DNA of 28,031 nt from a virus (lineage: Duplodnaviria; Heunggongvirae; Uroviricota; Caudoviricetes), in the IMG/VR virus record IMGVR_UViG_2740892212_000023; one strand, written 5' to 3'. The stretch's first letter is position 1; each line of letters opens with the position of its first letter. Positions 1,931 through 28,031 of this stretch are shown here, piece after piece. The notes under the pieces are model-generated. The model ran no database searches. It was not told the DNA's origin and saw nothing but the letters and a program-made list of their open reading frames with translations. A program made the translations under genes and the position numbers.

Positions 1931-2115
1931 ACGCCACAATTCAAACGATACCAGAGCTTCTTATCCAGACACGAGGCAATCAGACCGAAGTGGCGAGGAT
2001 GCTTTCCTGTGCAAGAGGAACAGTGCTCAAGTACAACCGAGACAGCAAAGGCGAGCGTCACGTAATAGTTAACGGCGTCCTGATGGTCAAACAGGGCAAG
2101 AGGGGAAGACGATGA
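1927..2115 (+). CDS. ninH: NinH protein
   Basis: 62-aa product …TIPELLIQTRGNQTEVARMLSCARGTVLKYNRD… resembles lambda NinH (helix-turn-helix-like). Confidence 0.75.
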   Translation: MNATIQTIPELLIQTRGNQTEVARMLSCARGTVLKYNRDSKGERHVIVNGVLMVKQGKRGRR

Positions 2116-2735
2116 GACTCGAAAGCGTAGCTAAATTTCATTCGCCAAAAAGCCCGATGATGAGCGACTCACCACGGGCTACGGCTTCTGACTCTCTTTC
2201 CGGTACTGATGTGATGGCTGCTATGGGGATGGCGCAATCACAAGCCGGATTCGGAATGGCTGCATTCTGCGGTAAGCATGAACTCAGCCAGAACGACAAA
2301 CAAAAGGCTATCAACTATCTGATGCAATTTGCACACAAGGTATCGGGGAAATACCGTGGTGTGGCAAAGCTTGAAGGAAATACTAAGGCAAAGGTACTGC
2401 AAGTGCTCGCAACATTCGCTTATGCGGATTATTGCCGTAGTGCCGCGACGCCGGGCGCAAGATGCAGAGATTGCCACGGTACAGGTCGGGCGGTTGATAT
2501 TGCCAAAACAGAGCAGTGGGGGAGAGTTGTTGAGAAAGAGTGCGGAAGATGCAAAGGTGTCGGCTATTCAAGAATGCCAGCAAGCGCCGCATATCGCGCT
2601 GTAACGATGCTAATCCCAAACCTTACTCAACCCACCTGGTCACGCACTGTTAAGCCTCTGTATGACGCTCTGGTGGTGCAATGCCACAAAGAAGAGTCAA
2701 TCGCAGACAACATTTTGAATGCGGTCACACGTTAG
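2112..2735 (+). CDS. Q: Late-gene antiterminator Q (lambda-type)
   Basis: 207-aa product that I recognise as essentially identical to lambda Q (MRLESVAKFHSPKSPMMSDSP…CRDCHGTGRAVD…CGRCKGVGYS…). Followed by the lambda pR' promoter sequence. Confidence 0.95.
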   Translation: MRLESVAKFHSPKSPMMSDSPRATASDSLSGTDVMAAMGMAQSQAGFGMAAFCGKHELSQNDKQKAINYLMQFAHKVSGKYRGVAKLEGNTKAKVLQVLATFAYADYCRSAATPGARCRDCHGTGRAVDIAKTEQWGRVVEKECGRCKGVGYSRMPASAAYRAVTMLIPNLTQPTWSRTVKPLYDALVVQCHKEESIADNILNAVTR

Positions 2736-2777
2736 CAGCATGATTGCCACGGATGGCAACATATTAACGGCATGATA

Positions 2778-2818
2778 TTGACTTATTGAATAAAATTGGG
2801 TAAATTTGACTCAAGAAT
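2778..2818 (+). promoter_or_regulatory. Late promoter pR' with qut-like initial transcribed region
   Basis: -35 TTGACT (2778-2783), 17-bp spacer, -10 TAAATT (2801-2806), matching lambda pR' as I recall it. The predicted +1 to +6 segment is AAGAAT (lambda: AACGAT), so a -10-like pause element is retained although the downstream sequence is new. Confidence 0.75.
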
Positions 2819-2877
2819 GGCAGATTTATATCCGTTCACATTCTTTCAGTTTTTACCCACCTCATCTTTAAGTTCTA

Positions 2878-2990
2878 AGCGCACTGACATGCGCATCATA
2901 AACTCGAGAGCACATAGGAATAGAGCCTGAGAAATATCGCTTTTGGCGACTTCTCTCGTGGTGATATTTCTATGTCAGCAGGCTCTAATA
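2878..2990 (+). repeat. Copy A of a duplicated ~110-nt leader element with conserved interleaved inverted repeats
   Basis: Shares the blocks AGCGCA…GCGCAT…CGAGAGC…GAGCCTGAGAAAT…GGCGAC.TCTCTCG…TTTCT.TG…CAGGCTC with 5518-5624. Lies directly upstream of the HNH gene start. Confidence 0.65.
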
Positions 2991-3006
2991 TCTATGTGGT
3001 TCGCCT

Positions 3007-3497
3007 ATGTTAAAACGTGAAGATGCATTGAGACTTTTTAATTACAATCCAGATACTGGAATTCTTACATGGAAGAATCCACCTCGGTCTTCTAGATTTA
3101 TCTATGGCGCTGTTGCTGGCTATAAACAAATGGATATCTGCAGGTAAAACTTTATGGAATGCGGCTATATGTCCATAGAATTGCATGGCTGATGGTTTAC
3201 AATGATTGGCCAACCGATGTGATTGACTATATTAATGGTGATAGGTCTGATAACCGGATAGCCAATCTTCGTGTTGTTACTAACACTCAAAACTCATGGA
3301 ACAGCAAGATGAGGAAAAACAATTCATCTGGTGTGAAGGGGGTGACTTTTAATTCTGCTGCAAACAAGTGGGTTGGAAGAATTAGGGTCAATGGTAAAAG
3401 GATTCATGTAGGGTGTTTTGACGATATCGAGGAGGCGAGAAAGGCAATGGAAAATGCCAGGATAAAATATCATGGTGAATTCTCCAGTATGGGATAG
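3007..3497 (+). pseudogene. HNH (HNH_3-type) homing endonuclease with C-terminal AP2 domain, interrupted by an apparent -1 frameshift
   Basis: N-terminal part in frame 1 (3007..3147: MLKREDALRLFNYNPDTGILTWKN…AVAGYKQMDICR*). The remainder is in frame 3 from 3126 (TNGYLQVKLYGMRLYVHRIAWLMVYNDWP…IDYINGDRSDNRIANLR…GVKGVTF…KWVGRIRVNGKRIHVGCFDDIEEA…YHGEF, to 3497). The frames switch inside the A-run at 3128-3130. The HNH signature reads DYINGD where the family normally has DHINGD. Confidence 0.7.
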
Positions 3498-3628
3498 ATG
3501 GGTTAATTCGCTCGTTGTGGTAGTGAGATGAAAAGAGGCGGCGCTTACTACCGATTCCGCCTAGTTGGTCACTTCGACGTATCGTCTGGAACTCCAACCA
3601 TCGCAGGCTGAGAGGTCTGTAAAATGCA

Positions 3629-3689
3629 ATCCCGAAACAGTTCGCAGGTAATAGTTAGAGCCTGCATAACGGTTTCGGGATTTTTTATT
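3629..3689 (+). terminator. tR'-like intrinsic terminator (end of the lambda 6S-RNA-homologous segment 3501-3689)
   Basis: Sequence 3501-3689 matches the lambda 6S RNA body from memory. Hairpin ATCCCGAAAC…GGTTTCGGGA followed by a T-run (3681-3689). Confidence 0.75.
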
Positions 3690-3690
3690 T

Positions 3691-3765
3691 GGGTCAGTCG
3701 TATAAAGGTCATTACGGAAGGCTGTTAACCTTCTTATCGTGGTTCGAGTCCACGCTGTCCCGCCA
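3691..3765 (+). tRNA. Candidate tRNA-Asn (anticodon GTT), possibly degenerate
   Basis: Hand-folded cloverleaf: acceptor GGGTCAG/CTGTCCC (one T·T mismatch), anticodon stem GAAGG/CCTTC with loop CTGTTAA, T-arm CGTGG-TTCGAGT-CCACG, discriminator G and encoded CCA. The D-stem is weak. Confidence 0.45.
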
Positions 3766-3770
3766 AATAT

Positions 3771-3846
3771 GCTGGTTTAGCTCCAATGGTAGAGCAGTCG
3801 CCTTGTAAGCGAATGGGTAGCGGTTCAAGTCCGTTAACCAGCACCA
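3771..3846 (+). tRNA. Candidate tRNA-Thr (anticodon TGT)
   Basis: Hand-folded cloverleaf: perfect 7-bp acceptor GCTGGTT/AACCAGC, D-arm GCTC-CAATGGTA-GAGC, anticodon loop CTTGTAA, T-arm AGCGG-TTCAAGT-CCGTT, discriminator A and encoded CCA. Confidence 0.65.
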
Positions 3847-4088
3847 TAACTGAGCCGTAGCCACTGGCTATCCTGAACTCATCAGTGATAGTTACGCTGC
3901 GGCCTTCTACACATGATCTTCGTGAAAGCGGGTGGCAGGAGGCTGCGCTAACAACCTCCTGCCGTTTTGCCCGTGCATATCGGTCACGAACAAATCTGAT
4001 TACTAAACACAGTAGCCTGGATTTGTTCTATCAGTAATCGACCTTATTCCTAATTAAATAGAGCAAATCCCCTTATTGGGGGTAAGAC

Positions 4089-4412
4089 ATGAAGATGCCA
4101 GAAAAACATGACCTGTTAGCCGCCATTCTCGCGGCAAAGGAACAAGGCATCGGGGCAATCCTTGCGTTTGCAATGGCGTACCTTCGCGGCAGGTATAATG
4201 GCGGTGCGTTTACAAAAACAGTAATCGACGCAACGATGTGCGCCATTATCGCCTGGTTCATTCGTGACCTTCTCGACTTCGCCGGACTAAGTAGCAATCT
4301 TGCTTATATAACGAGCGTGTTTATCGGCTACATCGGTACTGACTCGATTGGTTCGCTTATCAAACGCTTCGCTGCTAAAAAAGCCGGAGTAGAAGATGGT
4401 GGAAATCAATAA
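4089..4412 (+). CDS. S: Holin S (class I, lambda-type, with dual-start motif MKMPEK)
   Basis: 107-aa product that I recognise as essentially identical to lambda S. The Met1-Lys2-Met3 dual-start arrangement for antiholin/holin is preserved. Confidence 0.95.
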
Positions 4413-23391: not shown

Positions 23392-23591
23392 GTAAAGAAT
23401 GTTGTTTCTGCGGCATTAGCGAATCAGACGCTGATCAAACATACATTTACTCTAAAGAAACAGGTCGGATGCTGTGTAGTGACTGCGTGTTGGACATCAT
23501 AAGATACAAGCATCTTGGATGTTCTGCCAGCATTAGCAATATAGGTGAAGTATATGAAGGGAAAGATATAACTGATAGAGCAGAAAGTTGA
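23388..23591 (+). CDS. Small Cys-rich protein (putative zinc ribbon), 67 aa
   Basis: Two CxxC pairs (CCFCG…CSDC). ATG 23388 overlaps the stop of the reconstructed arc frame. P22 has no gene between arc and ant. Confidence 0.45.
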   Translation: MSKECCFCGISESDADQTYIYSKETGRMLCSDCVLDIIRYKHLGCSASISNIGEVYEGKDITDRAES

Positions 23592-23653
23592 AGCCCCAAC
23601 TGCGGTAACAGTCAGGGCTTCGGTATCAACAAATCGTCTTAGGAAATATTGAC

Positions 23654-24532
23654 ATGAAAAGTATAGCAAAGGCACAAAACGATTTCACCATCTTCAAATT
23701 CGGCGACAGTGAAATCCGCGTCATCAACAAGTGCGGTGAGCCGTGGTTTGTAGCTAAAGATGTTTGTGATGCTTTAGCTTTGACTAACTCACGCAAGGCG
23801 CTTACTGCACTTGATGACGATGAAAAGGGAGTAACTTTAAGTTACACCCTTGGTGGTGAGCAGAATCTAAGCATTGTGAGCGAATCAGGTATGTATACAT
23901 TGGTTCTGCGCTGCCGCGATGCAGTCAATAAAGGTTCAGTCCCGCACAAATTCCGCAAGTGGGTAACAGCAGAAGTTCTGCCTTCAATTCGCAAACATGG
24001 CGAGTATGTTAAAGGAAAGAAAACCACTGTTGAGGAAAGAACACCGCTACGCGATGCAGTAAACATGCTGGTAGGAAAGAAAGGACTTCGCTATGACGAT
24101 GCATACAATATGGTTCATCAGCGTTTTGGTATTGACAGCATTGATGAACTTTCAATTGAACAAATCCCGCAAGCTGTAGAGTACATCCACAGGGTAGTGC
24201 TTGAAGGTGAGTTCATCGGCAAACAAGAGAAGAAAACCAACGAGCTTTCTGCAAAAGAAGCAAACAGCCTTGTATGGTTATGGGATTATGCCAACCGCTC
24301 ACAGGCATTATTCCGCGAACTGTATCTGGCATTAAAACAAATTCAATCGAACTATTCCGGCAGATGCTACGACTACGGTTATGAGTTCTCGTATGTTATC
24401 GGAATGGCGAGAGATGTTTTAATCAACCATACACGAGATGTTGATATTAATGAGCCAGACGGACCAACGAATCTTTCCGCATGGATGAGACTTAAGAATA
24501 AAGAATTACCTCCTTCAGTACATAACTACTGA
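23654..24532 (+). CDS. ant: Antirepressor Ant (Bro-N-type N-terminal domain)
   Basis: 292 aa with …[32 protein letters not shown]…[16 protein letters not shown]…[18 protein letters not shown]…, the Bro-N/Ant signature, in the P22 ant position. Confidence 0.85.
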
Positions 24533-24632: not shown

Positions 24633-26795
24633 ATGACAGACATTACAGCCAATGTTGTAGTGAGTATGCCTTCGCAACTCTTCACTATGGCGAGTTCTTT
24701 TAAAGCTGTTGCCAATGGAAAAATTTATATCGGTAAAATTGACACTGACCCGGTAAATCCTGAAAACCAGATTCAGGTTTATGTGGAGAACGAAGACGGC
24801 TCTCACGTTCCTGTTTCGCAACCAATCATCATTAACGCTGCTGGATACCCGGTATATAACGGGCAGATTGCAAAGTTCGTAACTGTGCAAGGCCATTCTA
24901 TGGCTGTTTATGACGCATATGGTGCACAGCAGTTCTATTTTCCTAATGTGTTGAAGTATGAGCCGGATCAATTAAGGTTGGAGCTTGAATCATCTGGTGG
25001 AGCAGGATTGATAGGTGGTGTTTCGAAGCCTATTACTTTTTTTGGTGCTATTGGTGATGGATTAACAAACAATACGCAGGCATTTAACGATGCAGAGATA
25101 TCGGAATTCAATGACATATACATTCCTGATGGTATTTATAATGTAAATAATATTAACTTAAATAAGAGATATTGGGGGCCTGGCATAGTAGTGATTAATT
25201 ACCAGACTAAATATTCTGGCTCTGGTGTTAACGACATGACCGTGTCAGGAATATACAATGGACAGCAAGATCTAAATGCAATTGTAAGAATAAAAGAAGC
25301 TTCAAATCCTGATAAGCTTGAATTCAGTACAGATAATGGAGTTACATGGCGTGACACGATAGACGTGTACAACCCAATCGATGACAGTGTATCTCAGCAA
25401 CCAATCGTAATACTTGCAGGTGGGGTGGATTTTTTCGTAAGTGGATTGAAGATAAACTTTTCTTCAACCACTGGACATACAGTAAATGACTCATGGTCAT
25501 TTTTCATTCCTTCCAATCCATCAGTAATAAACACAGGAAGTGGCAGCATCGTTAAATCAGGAAGCGTTATTTTTAATGTTAGCGGAAACAATGATACTAA
25601 TACTTCCGCTGGAAAAGACTCATTAGGCGGTGGAAACGTAGGAGCTAACAATACCGCATATGGGTGGAAGAGTTTGCACTCAAACACTACAGGATACGCA
25701 AATACCGCGTCTGGGATTCAGTCTATGGAAAACAATAAGACTGGTAAAAACAATTGTGCATACGGTGCTGATTCTCTAAGAGCTAACGTATCTGGTTCTG
25801 ATAACGTAGCGGTTGGGGTTTTTGCGTTATGTGCAAACACAACAGGCTACGGTAATACTGGTATTGGTAATGATACTAACAGGTATAACAAAACAGGATT
25901 TGGGAATACTGCGGCAGGTGTGCAGGCCTTGTATCACAACAGTGCTGGTAATGAGAACACCGCTTTTGGTGAATATGCGTTACGTGGCGGTAATTCCAGT
26001 TTTCCTACGGGGGTGTCTATCCAGTATTGTGTTGCGGTAGGGGCTAAGTCGGGTTTCAACGCGTTAGGTAATAATAATACAGCTATAGGTTACGAGGCGC
26101 TATATTCTGCATCAGGATCTGATAATGTTGGTATTGGATTCGATGCAGGGTTTAAAGTAACGGCTGGATCTTTCAATGTATTTTTAGGTTCTAATTCTGG
26201 TAACGTGTCAGAGCAGGCTACAGATGTGACAAACTGCGTCCTTCTCGGAGATAATACAAAATCAACCGGAAGTAACGCAGTAGCTATCGGTAGTGGGGTA
26301 ATTGCCGCTCAGAATACTGTAGCTATAGGTAATAGTGAGCATGAATTATTCTTTCATTATGGGAAAATTACACCACAAATTGATAATGCTTTTGATATTG
26401 GTGGGCCGGATGCGAGATATAAAACAATATATGCAACTACAGGAATGATAAATACATCAAATGAAATGTTGAAAACAAAACTAACAGACATTGATGTTGC
26501 TGAAAAAAAAGCTGCACTAGAAATAAAAGATAATATTAAAAAGTTTAAGATGCTGGATTCTGTTGAGGTAAAGGGATTTGATGGTGCTAGGTGGCATTTT
26601 GGTGTTGGAGCTCAAACTGTTGGTAATATAATGAGGAAGCACGGACTTGATCCTAGTAAGTATGGGTTTTGGTGTCACGATAAAACGCATCGCGAACACA
26701 TGACTGGAAATATAGATATCTTTTGTGAAAGTTATGGTATAAGATATGACGAACTTGCAATGTTTATATTGGCATCAATATCTTTATGTGAATAA
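24633..26795 (+). CDS. Tailspike protein: P22 gp9-type head-binding N-terminus, G/N/T-rich repeat receptor-binding region, C-terminal S74-like intramolecular chaperone
   Basis: The N-terminal ~115 aa resemble the P22 gp9 head-binding domain ([11 protein letters not shown]…[33 protein letters not shown]…). The central region carries about 15-aa repeats of the form N(T/N)A.G…AL…N..G. The C-terminus begins SNEMLK (Ser-x4-Lys spacing as in S74 autoproteolytic chaperone domains). AT-rich after about 24950. Confidence 0.85.
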
Positions 26796-26865: not shown

Positions 26866-26885
26866 AAGGTGGATCACTCCACCTT
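26866..26885. terminator. Hairpin at the convergent tailspike/integrase junction
   Basis: AAGGTGGA-TCAC-TCCACCTT followed by TTT on the + strand. Overlaps the 3' end of int. Confidence 0.4.
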
Positions 26886-28031
26886 TTCATCAAGCCAGTC
26901 CGTCCACCATTGCATCATTTCTCTGCGCTTATCGAGATACTGAGCATGGTTGTAAATCCCGCGCACAGATCCGCCGTTGGCATGTGCCAGTTGCACTTCA
27001 ATAGCATCAGCAGGCCATTCGTGCTCGTTCATAATCGTGCTGAATTCATGCCTGAATCCGTGACCGCTTTCCAGACCCTCATAGCCGATTTGTTTGATCA
27101 CAAGTAGCACCGCGTTCTCGCAGATTGGCTTCTTCTTATCGTTGCGCCCGGCAAAAACAAACTCTGATACTGGTTTAGTGATGGAGCTTAGCGTAGTGAG
27201 AAGTTCAACCACCTGGTCTGACATAGGAACAACATGAATCTTGCGGCCCTTCATCACACTGGCGTCGATAGTGATAATCCTGTTTTCAAAATCGACGTTC
27301 TTCCATTGCATGGAGCGAAGCTCTTTCGTTCTTAGGGCTGTGTAGCGTAAAACTTTGGTCGCAATGAGCGATATGATGCTTCCTGAAAATGTTGCCAGTG
27401 CTTTGTTGAATGCAGGGATCTGGTCTGCTGGGAGAAACGGGAAGTTCTTCTTGCGGTATCCCTTCATGGCGTCAGCAAGGTCAGGTGCCGGGTTATATTT
27501 AGCCCTACCAGTGACAATAGCGTAACGGAAAACCTCGCCGCATCTTCTGCGGGCTTTGTTGGCTCGCTCCATTGCACCGCGATCTTCAAATCTGCGGATT
27601 ACTTCCAGCAGTTGCATCGGCTCAATATCCTGAATTTCAAGGCCGCCGATGATAGGTAAAATGTCGTCATCAAACATTTTTGCAAGTTCAGTTGCATAGC
27701 CTACTGACCAGACTTGCTTCTTGTGCTCGTACCATTCCTTGTAAATCGCACTAAAGGAATTGTTGTTAGACGAAGCCTTTTTCGCTTTTACCGGATCGAT
27801 GCCAACCGAGATGTCTTTCCTCGCGGTCCATGCTTTATCTCTTGCCTCCTGCAAAGTCATTAGCGGATATTTTCCTACGGTCAGGATTTTCTCCTTACCG
27901 TCAATCTTGTAGCGAAGCTGCCATACCTTTTTCCCTGACACAGGGACATAAAGGTACAGGCCATTACTATCGAGTAGGCGGTATGGTTTTTCTTTCGGCT
28001 TTGCTGCTTCAATCTGCTTAACGGTGAGCAT
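26874..28031 (-). CDS. int: Tyrosine site-specific integrase (P4-like N-terminal arm-binding region)
   Basis: 385 aa; the ATG is the last three bases of the window. N-terminus MLTVKQIEAAKPKEKPYRLLDSNGLYLYV…GKKVWQLRYKIDGKEKILTVGKYP…, C-terminal catalytic motifs …GHGFRHEF… and …RGIYNHAQYLDKR…. Confidence 0.9.
   Translation of the reverse strand: MLTVKQIEAAKPKEKPYRLLDSNGLYLYVPVSGKKVWQLRYKIDGKEKILTVGKYPLMTLQEARDKAWTARKDISVGIDPVKAKKASSNNNSFSAIYKEWYEHKKQVWSVGYATELAKMFDDDILPIIGGLEIQDIEPMQLLEVIRRFEDRGAMERANKARRRCGEVFRYAIVTGRAKYNPAPDLADAMKGYRKKNFPFLPADQIPAFNKALATFSGSIISLIATKVLRYTALRTKELRSMQWKNVDFENRIITIDASVMKGRKIHVVPMSDQVVELLTTLSSITKPVSEFVFAGRNDKKKPICENAVLLVIKQIGYEGLESGHGFRHEFSTIMNEHEWPADAIEVQLAHANGGSVRGIYNHAQYLDKRREMMQWWTDWLDEKVE

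Follow-up and report, generated by a model that had tools for sequence, protein, structure and literature searches.

A phage 21/Sf6-type tRNA-Asn and tRNA-Thr cassette at the start of the late operon of a P22-like Escherichia coli phage, and its relation to phage tRNAs that resist P2 OLD

Two adjacent tRNA genes, tRNA-Asn (anticodon GUU; 3691..3765, plus strand) and tRNA-Thr (anticodon UGU; 3771..3846, plus strand), lie between the late terminator tR' and the holin gene in the DNA analysed here, a 28,031-nucleotide stretch of a tailed phage genome (IMG/VR record IMGVR_UViG_2740892212_000023), hereafter the window. We consider it likely that both are genuine, functional tRNA genes that form a phage 21/Sf6-type cassette at the 5' end of the late operon. 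In the explanation that we favour, and to which the same degree of confidence applies, the genes would be expressed late in a Q-dependent manner and their products would replace host tRNAs cut by tRNases, an activity demonstrated in trans for the Thr molecule and predicted for the Asn member. As a sequence feature the pair is already known, since it represents a long-annotated phage 21/Sf6-type late-operon cassette.

Exactly two tRNA genes were called by ARAGORN in the 28-kb window, both on the plus strand, and the pair recovered in this way and with Rfam bore out the original prediction in identity, coordinates and placement, directly behind tR' and ahead of the holin gene. tRNA-Asn is 75 nt long, with G73 and the anticodon stem GAAGG/CCUUC, whilst tRNA-Thr is 76 nt long, with A73, the acceptor pairs G1-C72 and C2-G71 and an anticodon stem, GUCGC/GCGAA, that carries a G27-A43 mismatch. 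The CCA ends that had been read from the sequence are encoded in both genes, and a 5-nt spacer (AATAT; 3766..3770, plus strand) separates them. A tRNA predictor had been proposed as the check on the two candidates; ARAGORN called both, and both aligned full-length to Rfam RF00005 (model positions 1-71), at 55.3 bits (E=1.5e-9) for tRNA-Asn and 61.5 bits (E=3e-11) for tRNA-Thr, above the gathering threshold of 29 bits. Chance cloverleaves were ruled out by these Rfam E-values of 1e-9 to 1e-11, and a 25-nt tRNA-Thr probe, with 0 matches expected, had a single match in the window, which likewise argues against a chance cloverleaf.

The window derives from a P22-like (Lederbergvirus-type) E. coli phage or prophage related to E212, CUS-3, HK620 and Kapi1. 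Based on Pfam and Rfam searches, its order runs from a Dam methylase through the nin genes, Q, the late leader, the two tRNAs and an S/R/Rz lysis cassette to the small (gp3) and large terminase subunits, the P22 portal and coat, an immI region with an ant-like gene and a sar RNA (23586-23652), the tailspike and, at the window end, a minus-strand integrase. Q (2112..2735, plus strand; 207 aa; Pfam Antiterm PF03589, 1.3e-57) is a lambda-type late antiterminator whose 3' end, together with the sequence downstream of it, is identical to lambda. On the other side of the cassette, 242 nt separate the end of tRNA-Thr from S (4089..4412, plus strand; Pfam Phage_holin_3_1, 2.4e-30), the holin/antiholin gene and first protein-coding gene of the late operon, which has the same start as lambda S. 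The absence of a toxin gene from this interval, as originally described, was borne out, since neither a toxin gene nor any other ORF was found at 3847-4088, a lambda-like non-coding stretch that is nearly identical to lambda upstream of S; alignment with lambda, Sf6 and mEp506 places the lambda-homologous untranslated region upstream of S at 3848..4088 (plus strand). Within it, a conserved terminator-like hairpin was read from the sequence at 3934-3963, followed by GTTTTG, and the equivalent position in phage L holds an annotated terminator. Phages of the 933W type carry the tRNA genes ileZ-argN-argO between Q and stx/S, expressed through Q antitermination. The window tRNAs occupy the same slot as those of the Stx phages, the Q-to-S 'moron' region of the lambdoid late operon, but whereas the Stx phages have rare-codon Ile and Arg tRNAs followed by stx, the window has Asn and Thr tRNAs and no toxin gene.

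Lambda itself had been described as having non-coding sequence between tR' and S. No tRNA-like signal was detected there, the lambda locus yielding no tRNA by ARAGORN and no tRNA-like Rfam match down to E=10, and these null results also ruled out the lambda filler as a decayed tRNA pair. The two phages do not differ by a pure insertion, however, as roughly 160 bp of the window (3688-3847) without a lambda counterpart stand in place of approximately 165 bp of unrelated lambda sequence. Identity to lambda resumes at AACTGAGCC (3848) and runs on into S (4089). The cassette is thus a substitution for lambda sequence rather than a pure insertion into the lambda spacer. In Sf6, the same cassette is found behind a phage-21-type Q/pR'/qut/tR' module, the join lying exactly at the terminator T-run.

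Both window tRNAs match their counterparts in phage 21 (AJ237660) and Sf6 (AF547987) at 100% identity, and the likeness extends to the order Asn-Thr, the length of the 5-nt spacer and the place between tR' and the holin gene; the sole difference from phage 21 and Sf6 in 156 bp is spacer T3768, which is C there. The Sf6 record labels the pair tRNA-Asn and tRNA-Thr, 'similar to phage 21' (annotation of Casjens et al. 2004), and the pair is also annotated in the records of mEp506, Kapi1, SfI, SPN9CC, Oslo and others. The phage L genome paper describes tRNA genes at this location in some P22-like phages, citing the Asn and Thr genes of Sf6 (PMC8022706). By blastn, the full pair was detected in approximately 410 of 5,426 complete E. 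coli genomes (~8%), where it is annotated by PGAP, and its sequence is at least 97% conserved across phages of Escherichia, Shigella and Salmonella. An origin of the pair as copies of host tRNA genes was rejected, given that blastn of the pair against the 5,426 genomes misses the chromosomal asn and thr genes; identity to the K-12 host genes is 63% (asnT) and 72% (thrU).

To place the pair among viral sequences, we used 120 IMG/VR contig segments sharing the Asn D-arm (20 gave no ARAGORN call and were left out). Asn-Thr was found in 80/120 segments, with others carrying Asn-Gly(UCC), Asn-Phe-Thr-Arg(UCU) and similar sets. The commonest allele of both genes is that of the window, the Asn allele occurring in 70 of about 100 viral contigs. 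Upstream of the cassette, the contigs had a phage-21-type tR' (~68), a lambda-type tR' as in the window (~11) or, for the rest, another context; among named phages, a lambda-type tR' precedes the cassette in mEp506 and HK446 as it does in the window, and a phage-21-type tR' precedes it in Sf6, as in most viral contigs. The window differs from phage 21 and Sf6 in that its cassette, like those of mEp506 and HK446, follows a lambda-type Q/pR'/6S/tR' module rather than a phage-21-type one, and in that it has an extra 682-bp decayed HNH insert in the leader. HK446, which figures in the functional literature considered below, has a whole region 99.8% identical to the window and a Thr(UGU) gene 100% identical to the window tRNA-Thr.

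Mismatches in the acceptor and D stems of tRNA-Asn had led to the suggestion that this gene may be a pseudo-tRNA. Both mismatches exist, the acceptor stem having U4-U69 and the D stem U13-U22, but the suggestion fares poorly, as they are fixed in the lineage, U4-U69 being present in 13/14 and U13-U22 in 14/14 distinct variants of tRNA-Asn, the window carries the commonest allele, and other pairs co-vary. Double compensatory changes were found at pairs 6-66, 7-65 and 28-42 of tRNA-Asn, with 90% of cells paired, and at pairs 3-70, 5-68 and 6-67 of tRNA-Thr, with 94% of cells paired; the covariation score was reached by 0/500 shuffles for tRNA-Asn and likewise for tRNA-Thr, and slid-partner controls dropped to 22-52% paired for both. 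Covariation was used because the single-sequence fold z-scores (-1.7) were uninformative alone. Among the variants of tRNA-Thr, the G27-A43 mismatch was present in 18/18 and C2-G71 was invariant in 18/18. Positions U8, A14, G18G19, U33, G53-U54-U55-C56, A58 and C61 and the 3' CCA are present in both genes. The identity set of AsnRS comprises the anticodon G34-U35-U36 and discriminator G73, and that of ThrRS comprises G1-C72 and C2-G71 together with G35-U36. Consistent with these sets, tRNA-Asn has the anticodon loop CUGUUAA and G73, the latter kept in 13/14 variants, and tRNA-Thr has the acceptor stem GCUGGUU/AACCAGC, anticodon UGU and A73.

These results bear directly on a non-decoding role, in which the cloverleaves, Asn especially, would be pseudo-tRNAs, RNase P processing signals or decaying remnants. 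The two tRNA-Asn mismatches with a 4-nt variable loop, the modest z-scores of -1.7 and a related lineage (ST64T and phage L), in which the second tRNA is 72 nt long, has an abnormal anticodon loop and is rejected by ARAGORN, would all fit such a relic. Yet fixation of the mismatches alongside covarying pairs, conservation of at least 97% across the phages of three host genera and an intact anticodon loop, T-loop, G18G19, U8, A14, G73 and CCA all speak against it, and the Thr member has been shown in the literature, by plasmid expression, to serve as a decoding tRNA replacement. We therefore regard a relic as very improbable.

The function of the Thr member is best understood in relation to P2 OLD, the nuclease that brings about classic P2-lambda interference. 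OLD kills by cutting host tRNA-Thr(UGU), and its slower substrates include Lys(UUU), Asn(GUU) and Val(UAC) (Govande et al., NAR 2025, PMC12445682). The same study found that phage Thr(UGU) tRNAs rescue OLD toxicity and that 'tRNA-Thr21 ... also protected against P2-OLD'; tRNA-Thr21 was uncleaved without ATP and nearly fully resistant at site 1, a resistance ascribed to a shorter anticodon stem plus C28U/G42A (PMC12445682). The OLD motif was defined as paired CNG at nt 28-30 and 40-42 of the anticodon stem, and resistance needs a shortened stem, with the 27-43 pair lost, together with the CNG change, CNG loss alone having given no protection in the tRNA-ThrU context (PMC12445682). In a preprint of July 2026, HK446 Thr(UGU) was described as 'strong counter-defense' that rescued HK97, HK542 and Bas34 on OLD+ cells, on which E. 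coli Thr(UGU) had no effect, whilst viral Thr(UGU) alone rescued neither lambda nor the toxicity in recB-deleted cells (bioRxiv 10.64898/2026.07.10.737580). The Thr rescue experiments of both studies used plasmid expression in trans (PMC12445682, bioRxiv 10.64898/2026.07.10.737580).

Judged by its sequence, the window tRNA-Thr and the tested molecules, 'tRNA-Thr21' and HK446 Thr(UGU), are one and the same. It carries U28/A42 and the G27-A43 mismatch, with no CNG on either strand (UCG/CGA); the host thrU anticodon stem is ACUGA/UCAGU, with CUG/CAG. Both features tied to OLD resistance, an altered CNG and a shortened stem (18/18 variants), are therefore found in the window tRNA-Thr, and it shares them with the OLD-resistant phage Thr(UGU) tRNAs (tRNA-Thr21, HK446 and T4/Bas32/Bas33). 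Whereas those tRNAs were tested from plasmids in trans, the window gene stands in its native late-operon place. In the cell, tRNA-Thr would resist the Toprim tRNase OLD of prophage P2, as the identical phage 21/HK446 sequence does in trans, and would replace the destroyed host tRNA and restore ACA decoding. HK446 also encodes a protein OLD inhibitor, Oad2 (bioRxiv 10.64898/2026.07.10.737580). The corresponding oad2 gene would lie in the early region, outside the window.

The genomic position of the cassette points to expression from the late promoter. A promoter scan placed pR' directly after Q (2778..2806, plus strand; TTGACT, 17-nt spacer, TAAATT), with a sequence identical to lambda pR' at 44553-44580, and we take its +1 to lie near 2813, by reference to the lambda 6S RNA start. 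The rest of the lambda-type 6S leader, which ends in tR', occupies 3497..3690 (plus strand) and is near-identical to lambda 44590-44781. The tR' hairpin (3628-3682; -26.9 kcal/mol, z=-6.08) was matched in stability by 0/200 shuffles, and its U-run (3681-3686) ends approximately 4 nt before G1 of tRNA-Asn. A separate promoter for the tRNAs found no support, as the 4 sites from a sigma-70 scan compare with a chance expectation of 3.4 and none of them lies at 3497-3690. Because the genes stand directly behind tR', their expression would be late, through Q read-through: transcription from pR' would reach them mainly when Q-modified RNA polymerase passes tR', placing them at the front of the late transcript in the late lytic phase. 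Host RNase P and 3' trimming enzymes would then release the tRNAs, as in general tRNA biology, with CCA already encoded.

The leader to be transcribed ahead of the tRNAs is lengthened by an insert of 682 bp (2815..3496, plus strand), which lies within the pR' initial transcribed/qut region at about +3 and holds a decayed homing-endonuclease gene (Pfam HNH_3, 6e-16; AP2, 3e-8). E. coli GF131 holds an intact copy of 163 aa, against which the window gene has lost 1 bp near 3123 and has undergone a His-to-Tyr change at 3228 (DHINGD to DYINGD); comparison of the two copies indicates that these changes have inactivated the HNH endonuclease gene in the window. Intact copies occupy this same position in 16-19 E. 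coli chromosomes. Alignment showed that lambda, mEp506 and HK446 do not carry the insert, and it had no megablast match in the phage collection, matches being confined to those 16-19 E. coli chromosomes. It opens with AAGAAT where lambda has AACGAT, so that a -10-like element is retained. Located at about +3, the insert alters the pause/qut region and might affect Q loading.

An alternative is that the tRNAs only top up the pool for ACA and AAC/AAU during late synthesis, their nuclease resistance being incidental. Codon usage had been put forward as a check on the tRNA genes, with AAC/AAU and ACA expected to be enriched, and this was confirmed for ACA (2.7-fold) and AAU (1.7-fold) but not for AAC. 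In the window ORFs, ACA accounts for 14.6 per 1000 codons and 27% of Thr codons, compared with 5.4 per 1000 and 10% in 42 K-12 genes, and total Asn reaches 48.9 compared with 37.7 per 1000. AAC furthermore makes up 17/20 Asn codons of the coat gene, the phage L paper argues likewise from a coat with AAC at 24/25 Asn codons (PMC8022706), and the Arg(UCU) and Gly(UCC) genes of other cassettes in the family correspond to AGA and GGA, two strongly enriched codons. However, ACA ranks only sixth in enrichment, after AGG (9.7x), AGA (8.3x), AUA (4.3x), GGA and UCA, and none of these five codons is served by the window cassette, whilst the Asn codons show no more than the 1.7-fold rise in AAU. Extra E. 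coli tRNA-Thr(UGU) gives no rescue from OLD and the phage versions do, which means that the sequence differences matter functionally, and simple supply offers no reason for the conserved G27-A43 mismatch or for the missing CNG and U39. We think it unlikely that codon supply is the whole explanation; its contribution is probable for Thr and weak for Asn. Given that the phage uses ACA 2.7-fold more often than host genes do, a moderate gain in codon supply could coexist with the anti-defence role and probably adds to it.

The neighbouring tRNA-Asn shows anticodon-stem changes that invite a similar interpretation. [quoted passage not shown] The main AriB target is tRNA-Lys(UUU), and bypass of B185 PARIS requires a resistant form of it; T5 tRNA-Lys resists via changes at positions 39 and 41, and the T5 Lys, Thr and Asn variants jointly neutralise PARIS (PMC12409363). 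Host asnT has the stem GCGGA/UCCGU, with paired CGG/CCG, and U36-A-A-U39-C40^C41 (^ marking the AriB cut), and window tRNA-Asn has GAAGG/CCUUC, with AAG/CUU and hence no CNG, and A-A-C39-C40^U41. The changes at 39 and 41 thus affect the two positions that confer AriB resistance on T5 tRNA-Lys, in a numbering validated by its reproduction of the published A39/C41 of T5 tRNA-Lys. At the same site, window tRNA-Thr reads UAAG-C^G compared with UAAU-C^A in the host, so both window tRNAs have the substitutions of U39 and position 41 that mark T5-type AriB evasion; T5 Thr and Asn are also without U39. The window pair therefore shares with the PARIS-resistant set of T5 (PMC11464382, PMC12409363) the Thr(UGU) and Asn(GUU) specificities, the loss of U39 and a difference at position 41, but identity to the T5 tRNAs is only ~62-66%, and T5 has approximately 24 tRNAs with their own promoters, whereas the window phage has two, behind a terminator.

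A further parallel comes from ~100-kb E. coli plasmids, probably phage-plasmids, on which Asn(GUU) and Thr(UGU) genes likewise stand side by side, Asn first, and have both lost U39 (C39 and G39). Their clusters differ from the window cassette in that identity is ~77%, the Thr member keeps a paired CUG/CAG and a fully paired stem, a tRNA-Ser gene follows the pair and the remaining context is another. A related tRNA-Thr is also present in P1, P7 and D6.

Taken as a sign of nuclease resistance, the anticodon-stem changes in tRNA-Asn are suggestive, not proof. They fall short because the stem is unshortened, G27-C43 being paired in 13/14 variants and G-U in the other, because a Klebsiella phage, Mulock, has an Asn allele in which paired CNG motifs have reappeared, and because tRNA-Lys(UUU) is not among the window tRNAs, ARAGORN having called only Asn and Thr. 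For this last reason, the cassette alone could not defeat B185 PARIS. With these points weighed, we propose tentatively, and at somewhat less than even confidence, that tRNA-Asn may be a nuclease-resistant decoy or replacement, and that the Asn-Thr pair may form a minimal Q-gated counter-defence module against OLD-family Toprim tRNases. Its part would resemble that of tRNA-Thr, with the phage molecule standing in for host tRNA-Asn(GUU), a secondary substrate of P2 OLD and AriB. The preprint refers to Thr as the 'single' tRNA of HK446 and leaves Asn unmentioned (bioRxiv 10.64898/2026.07.10.737580); the HK446 records hold no tRNA annotation, and the adjacent Asn therefore appears to have been overlooked. 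An eLife 2023 survey of phage tRNA anticodon-loop mutations (PMC10264068) makes no mention of Asn, Thr or temperate phages.

[quoted passage not shown] In the present case, the prophage of E. coli APEC O2-211, which matches the tailspike-integrase junction of the window at 100% and has the same IntS-type integrase, adjoins an intact tRNA-Arg gene beside yfdC rather than a Thr(UGU) or Asn gene, and no tRNA fragment adjoins int in the window. The same cassette also occurs in phages with different integration modules and, behind tR' in a Q-dependent late operon, should be largely silent in a lysogen. Compensation for integration is thus largely refuted for this phage type, and we rate it the least probable of the explanations considered. 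An attP or integration remnant was rejected as the origin of the tRNA genes, there being no tRNA signal beside int and the matching prophage lying at a tRNA-Arg gene.

As a sequence feature, the cassette is ordinary, with an identical pair annotated for two decades (phage 21, Sf6) and present in hundreds of E. coli prophages, and its identification here serves annotation rather than discovery. The work of 2025-2026 changes its meaning, because the same tRNA-Thr lets lambdoid phages withstand the OLD nuclease of P2-lambda interference, so that the Thr member is now known as a functional element as well as a sequence feature. To this the window adds a neighbouring tRNA-Asn with apparently analogous anticodon-stem changes, and a phage type to which the idea of compensation for integration, put forward for HK446, does not apply. 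The remaining interest lies in the tRNA-Asn partner and in the pair as a minimal counter to OLD-family tRNases. If this proposal is true, the targets would be P2 Old and PARIS AriB, carried by P2 prophages and P4 satellites, with which lambdoid phages naturally compete inside the cell, and it would explain why ~8% of E. coli genomes have Asn and Thr specificities, rather than those for the rarest codons, fixed at this site.

At its right-hand end the window encodes an IntS-type integrase (26877-28031, minus strand), and the junction between this gene and the tailspike gene is matched at 100% by a prophage in the chromosome of E. coli APEC O2-211 (2695-4088 of the compared locus). In that prophage the integrase gene borders the argW locus, an intact tRNA-Arg gene next to yfdC. 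APEC O2-211, or a strain very close to it, may be where the window comes from. Further upstream, a P22 sar antisense RNA (23586-23652, minus strand; Rfam RF00262, 74.5 bits) adjoins an antirepressor-like gene (23654-24532, plus strand) with Bro-N and P22_AR_C domains, and together these form an immI-type secondary immunity region. The intervening tailspike (24633-26795) carries a P22-type head-binding domain ahead of endosialidase-like catalytic and chaperone domains, the latter two recognized through weak Pfam matches, in the same layout as the tailspike of the K1-capsule phage CUS-3. This protein is unusually rich in Asn, which accounts for 72 of its 720 codons, 44 of them AAU.

Two elements flank the tRNA genes within the late transcription unit. 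The first is a 682-bp insert (2815-3496) carrying an HNH_3 and AP2 homing-endonuclease gene, located at approximately +3 of pR', a late promoter of the lambda type, within the sigma-dependent pause/qut region. The insert begins with AAGAAT, where lambda has AACGAT, and a -10-like pause element is therefore kept. In the window the endonuclease gene is a pseudogene: an A-run near 3123 has lost 1 bp, and DHINGD has become DYINGD at 3228. Between 16 and 19 E. coli chromosomes have an intact 163-aa version at the identical position, whereas the insert was absent from every phage of the collection searched. The second element (3934-3969), between the tRNA genes and the holin gene S, consists of a hairpin rich in G+C (GGCAGGAGG...CCTCCTGCC) and a GTTTTG behind it. 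It is kept in lambda and Sf6, and phage L has an annotated terminator at the homologous position. This hairpin would constitute a second terminator-like element for the Q-modified polymerase to pass.

The Asn-Thr pair is also carried by phage HK446 at 100% identity, and the GenBank and RefSeq records of that phage (JQ086372 and NC_019714) are without tRNA annotation. This accords with a recent description of the phage in which Thr(UGU) is its 'single' tRNA and the neighbouring tRNA-Asn goes unmentioned (bioRxiv 10.64898/2026.07.10.737580). Salmonella phage L (681-752 of the compared locus), ST64T and ST160 have a 72-nt second tRNA annotated as tRNA-Leu(UAA); in the ST64T/phage L lineage its acceptor stem is Thr-like (GCUGGUU/AAUCAGC, A73), its anticodon arm is rebuilt with an abnormal, short loop, its Rfam score is 42 bits and ARAGORN made no call. 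This molecule may have arisen from the Thr gene by remodelling of the anticodon arm, or it may be a copy in decay. In the tRNA-Asn allele of Klebsiella phage Mulock (601-675 of the compared locus), C28-G42 stands in place of A28-U42, a compensatory change that restores the paired CNG motifs (CAG/CUG) preferred by P2-OLD, the tRNA-cutting nuclease of prophage P2, and loss of CNG is therefore not universal in this tRNA-Asn lineage.

Among the viral contigs compared (L010-L129), the Asn-first cassette is modular: 80 have Asn-Thr, six have Asn-Gly(UCC) and four have Asn-Phe-Thr-Arg(UCU), with or without Gly, and further arrangements also occur. Because Gly(UCC) is reported to be among the preferred P2-OLD targets (bioRxiv 10.64898/2026.07.10.737580), and Arg(UCU) and Gly(UCC) read AGA and GGA, both strongly enriched in the window phage, these extra members fit both resistance to OLD-family tRNases and codon supply.
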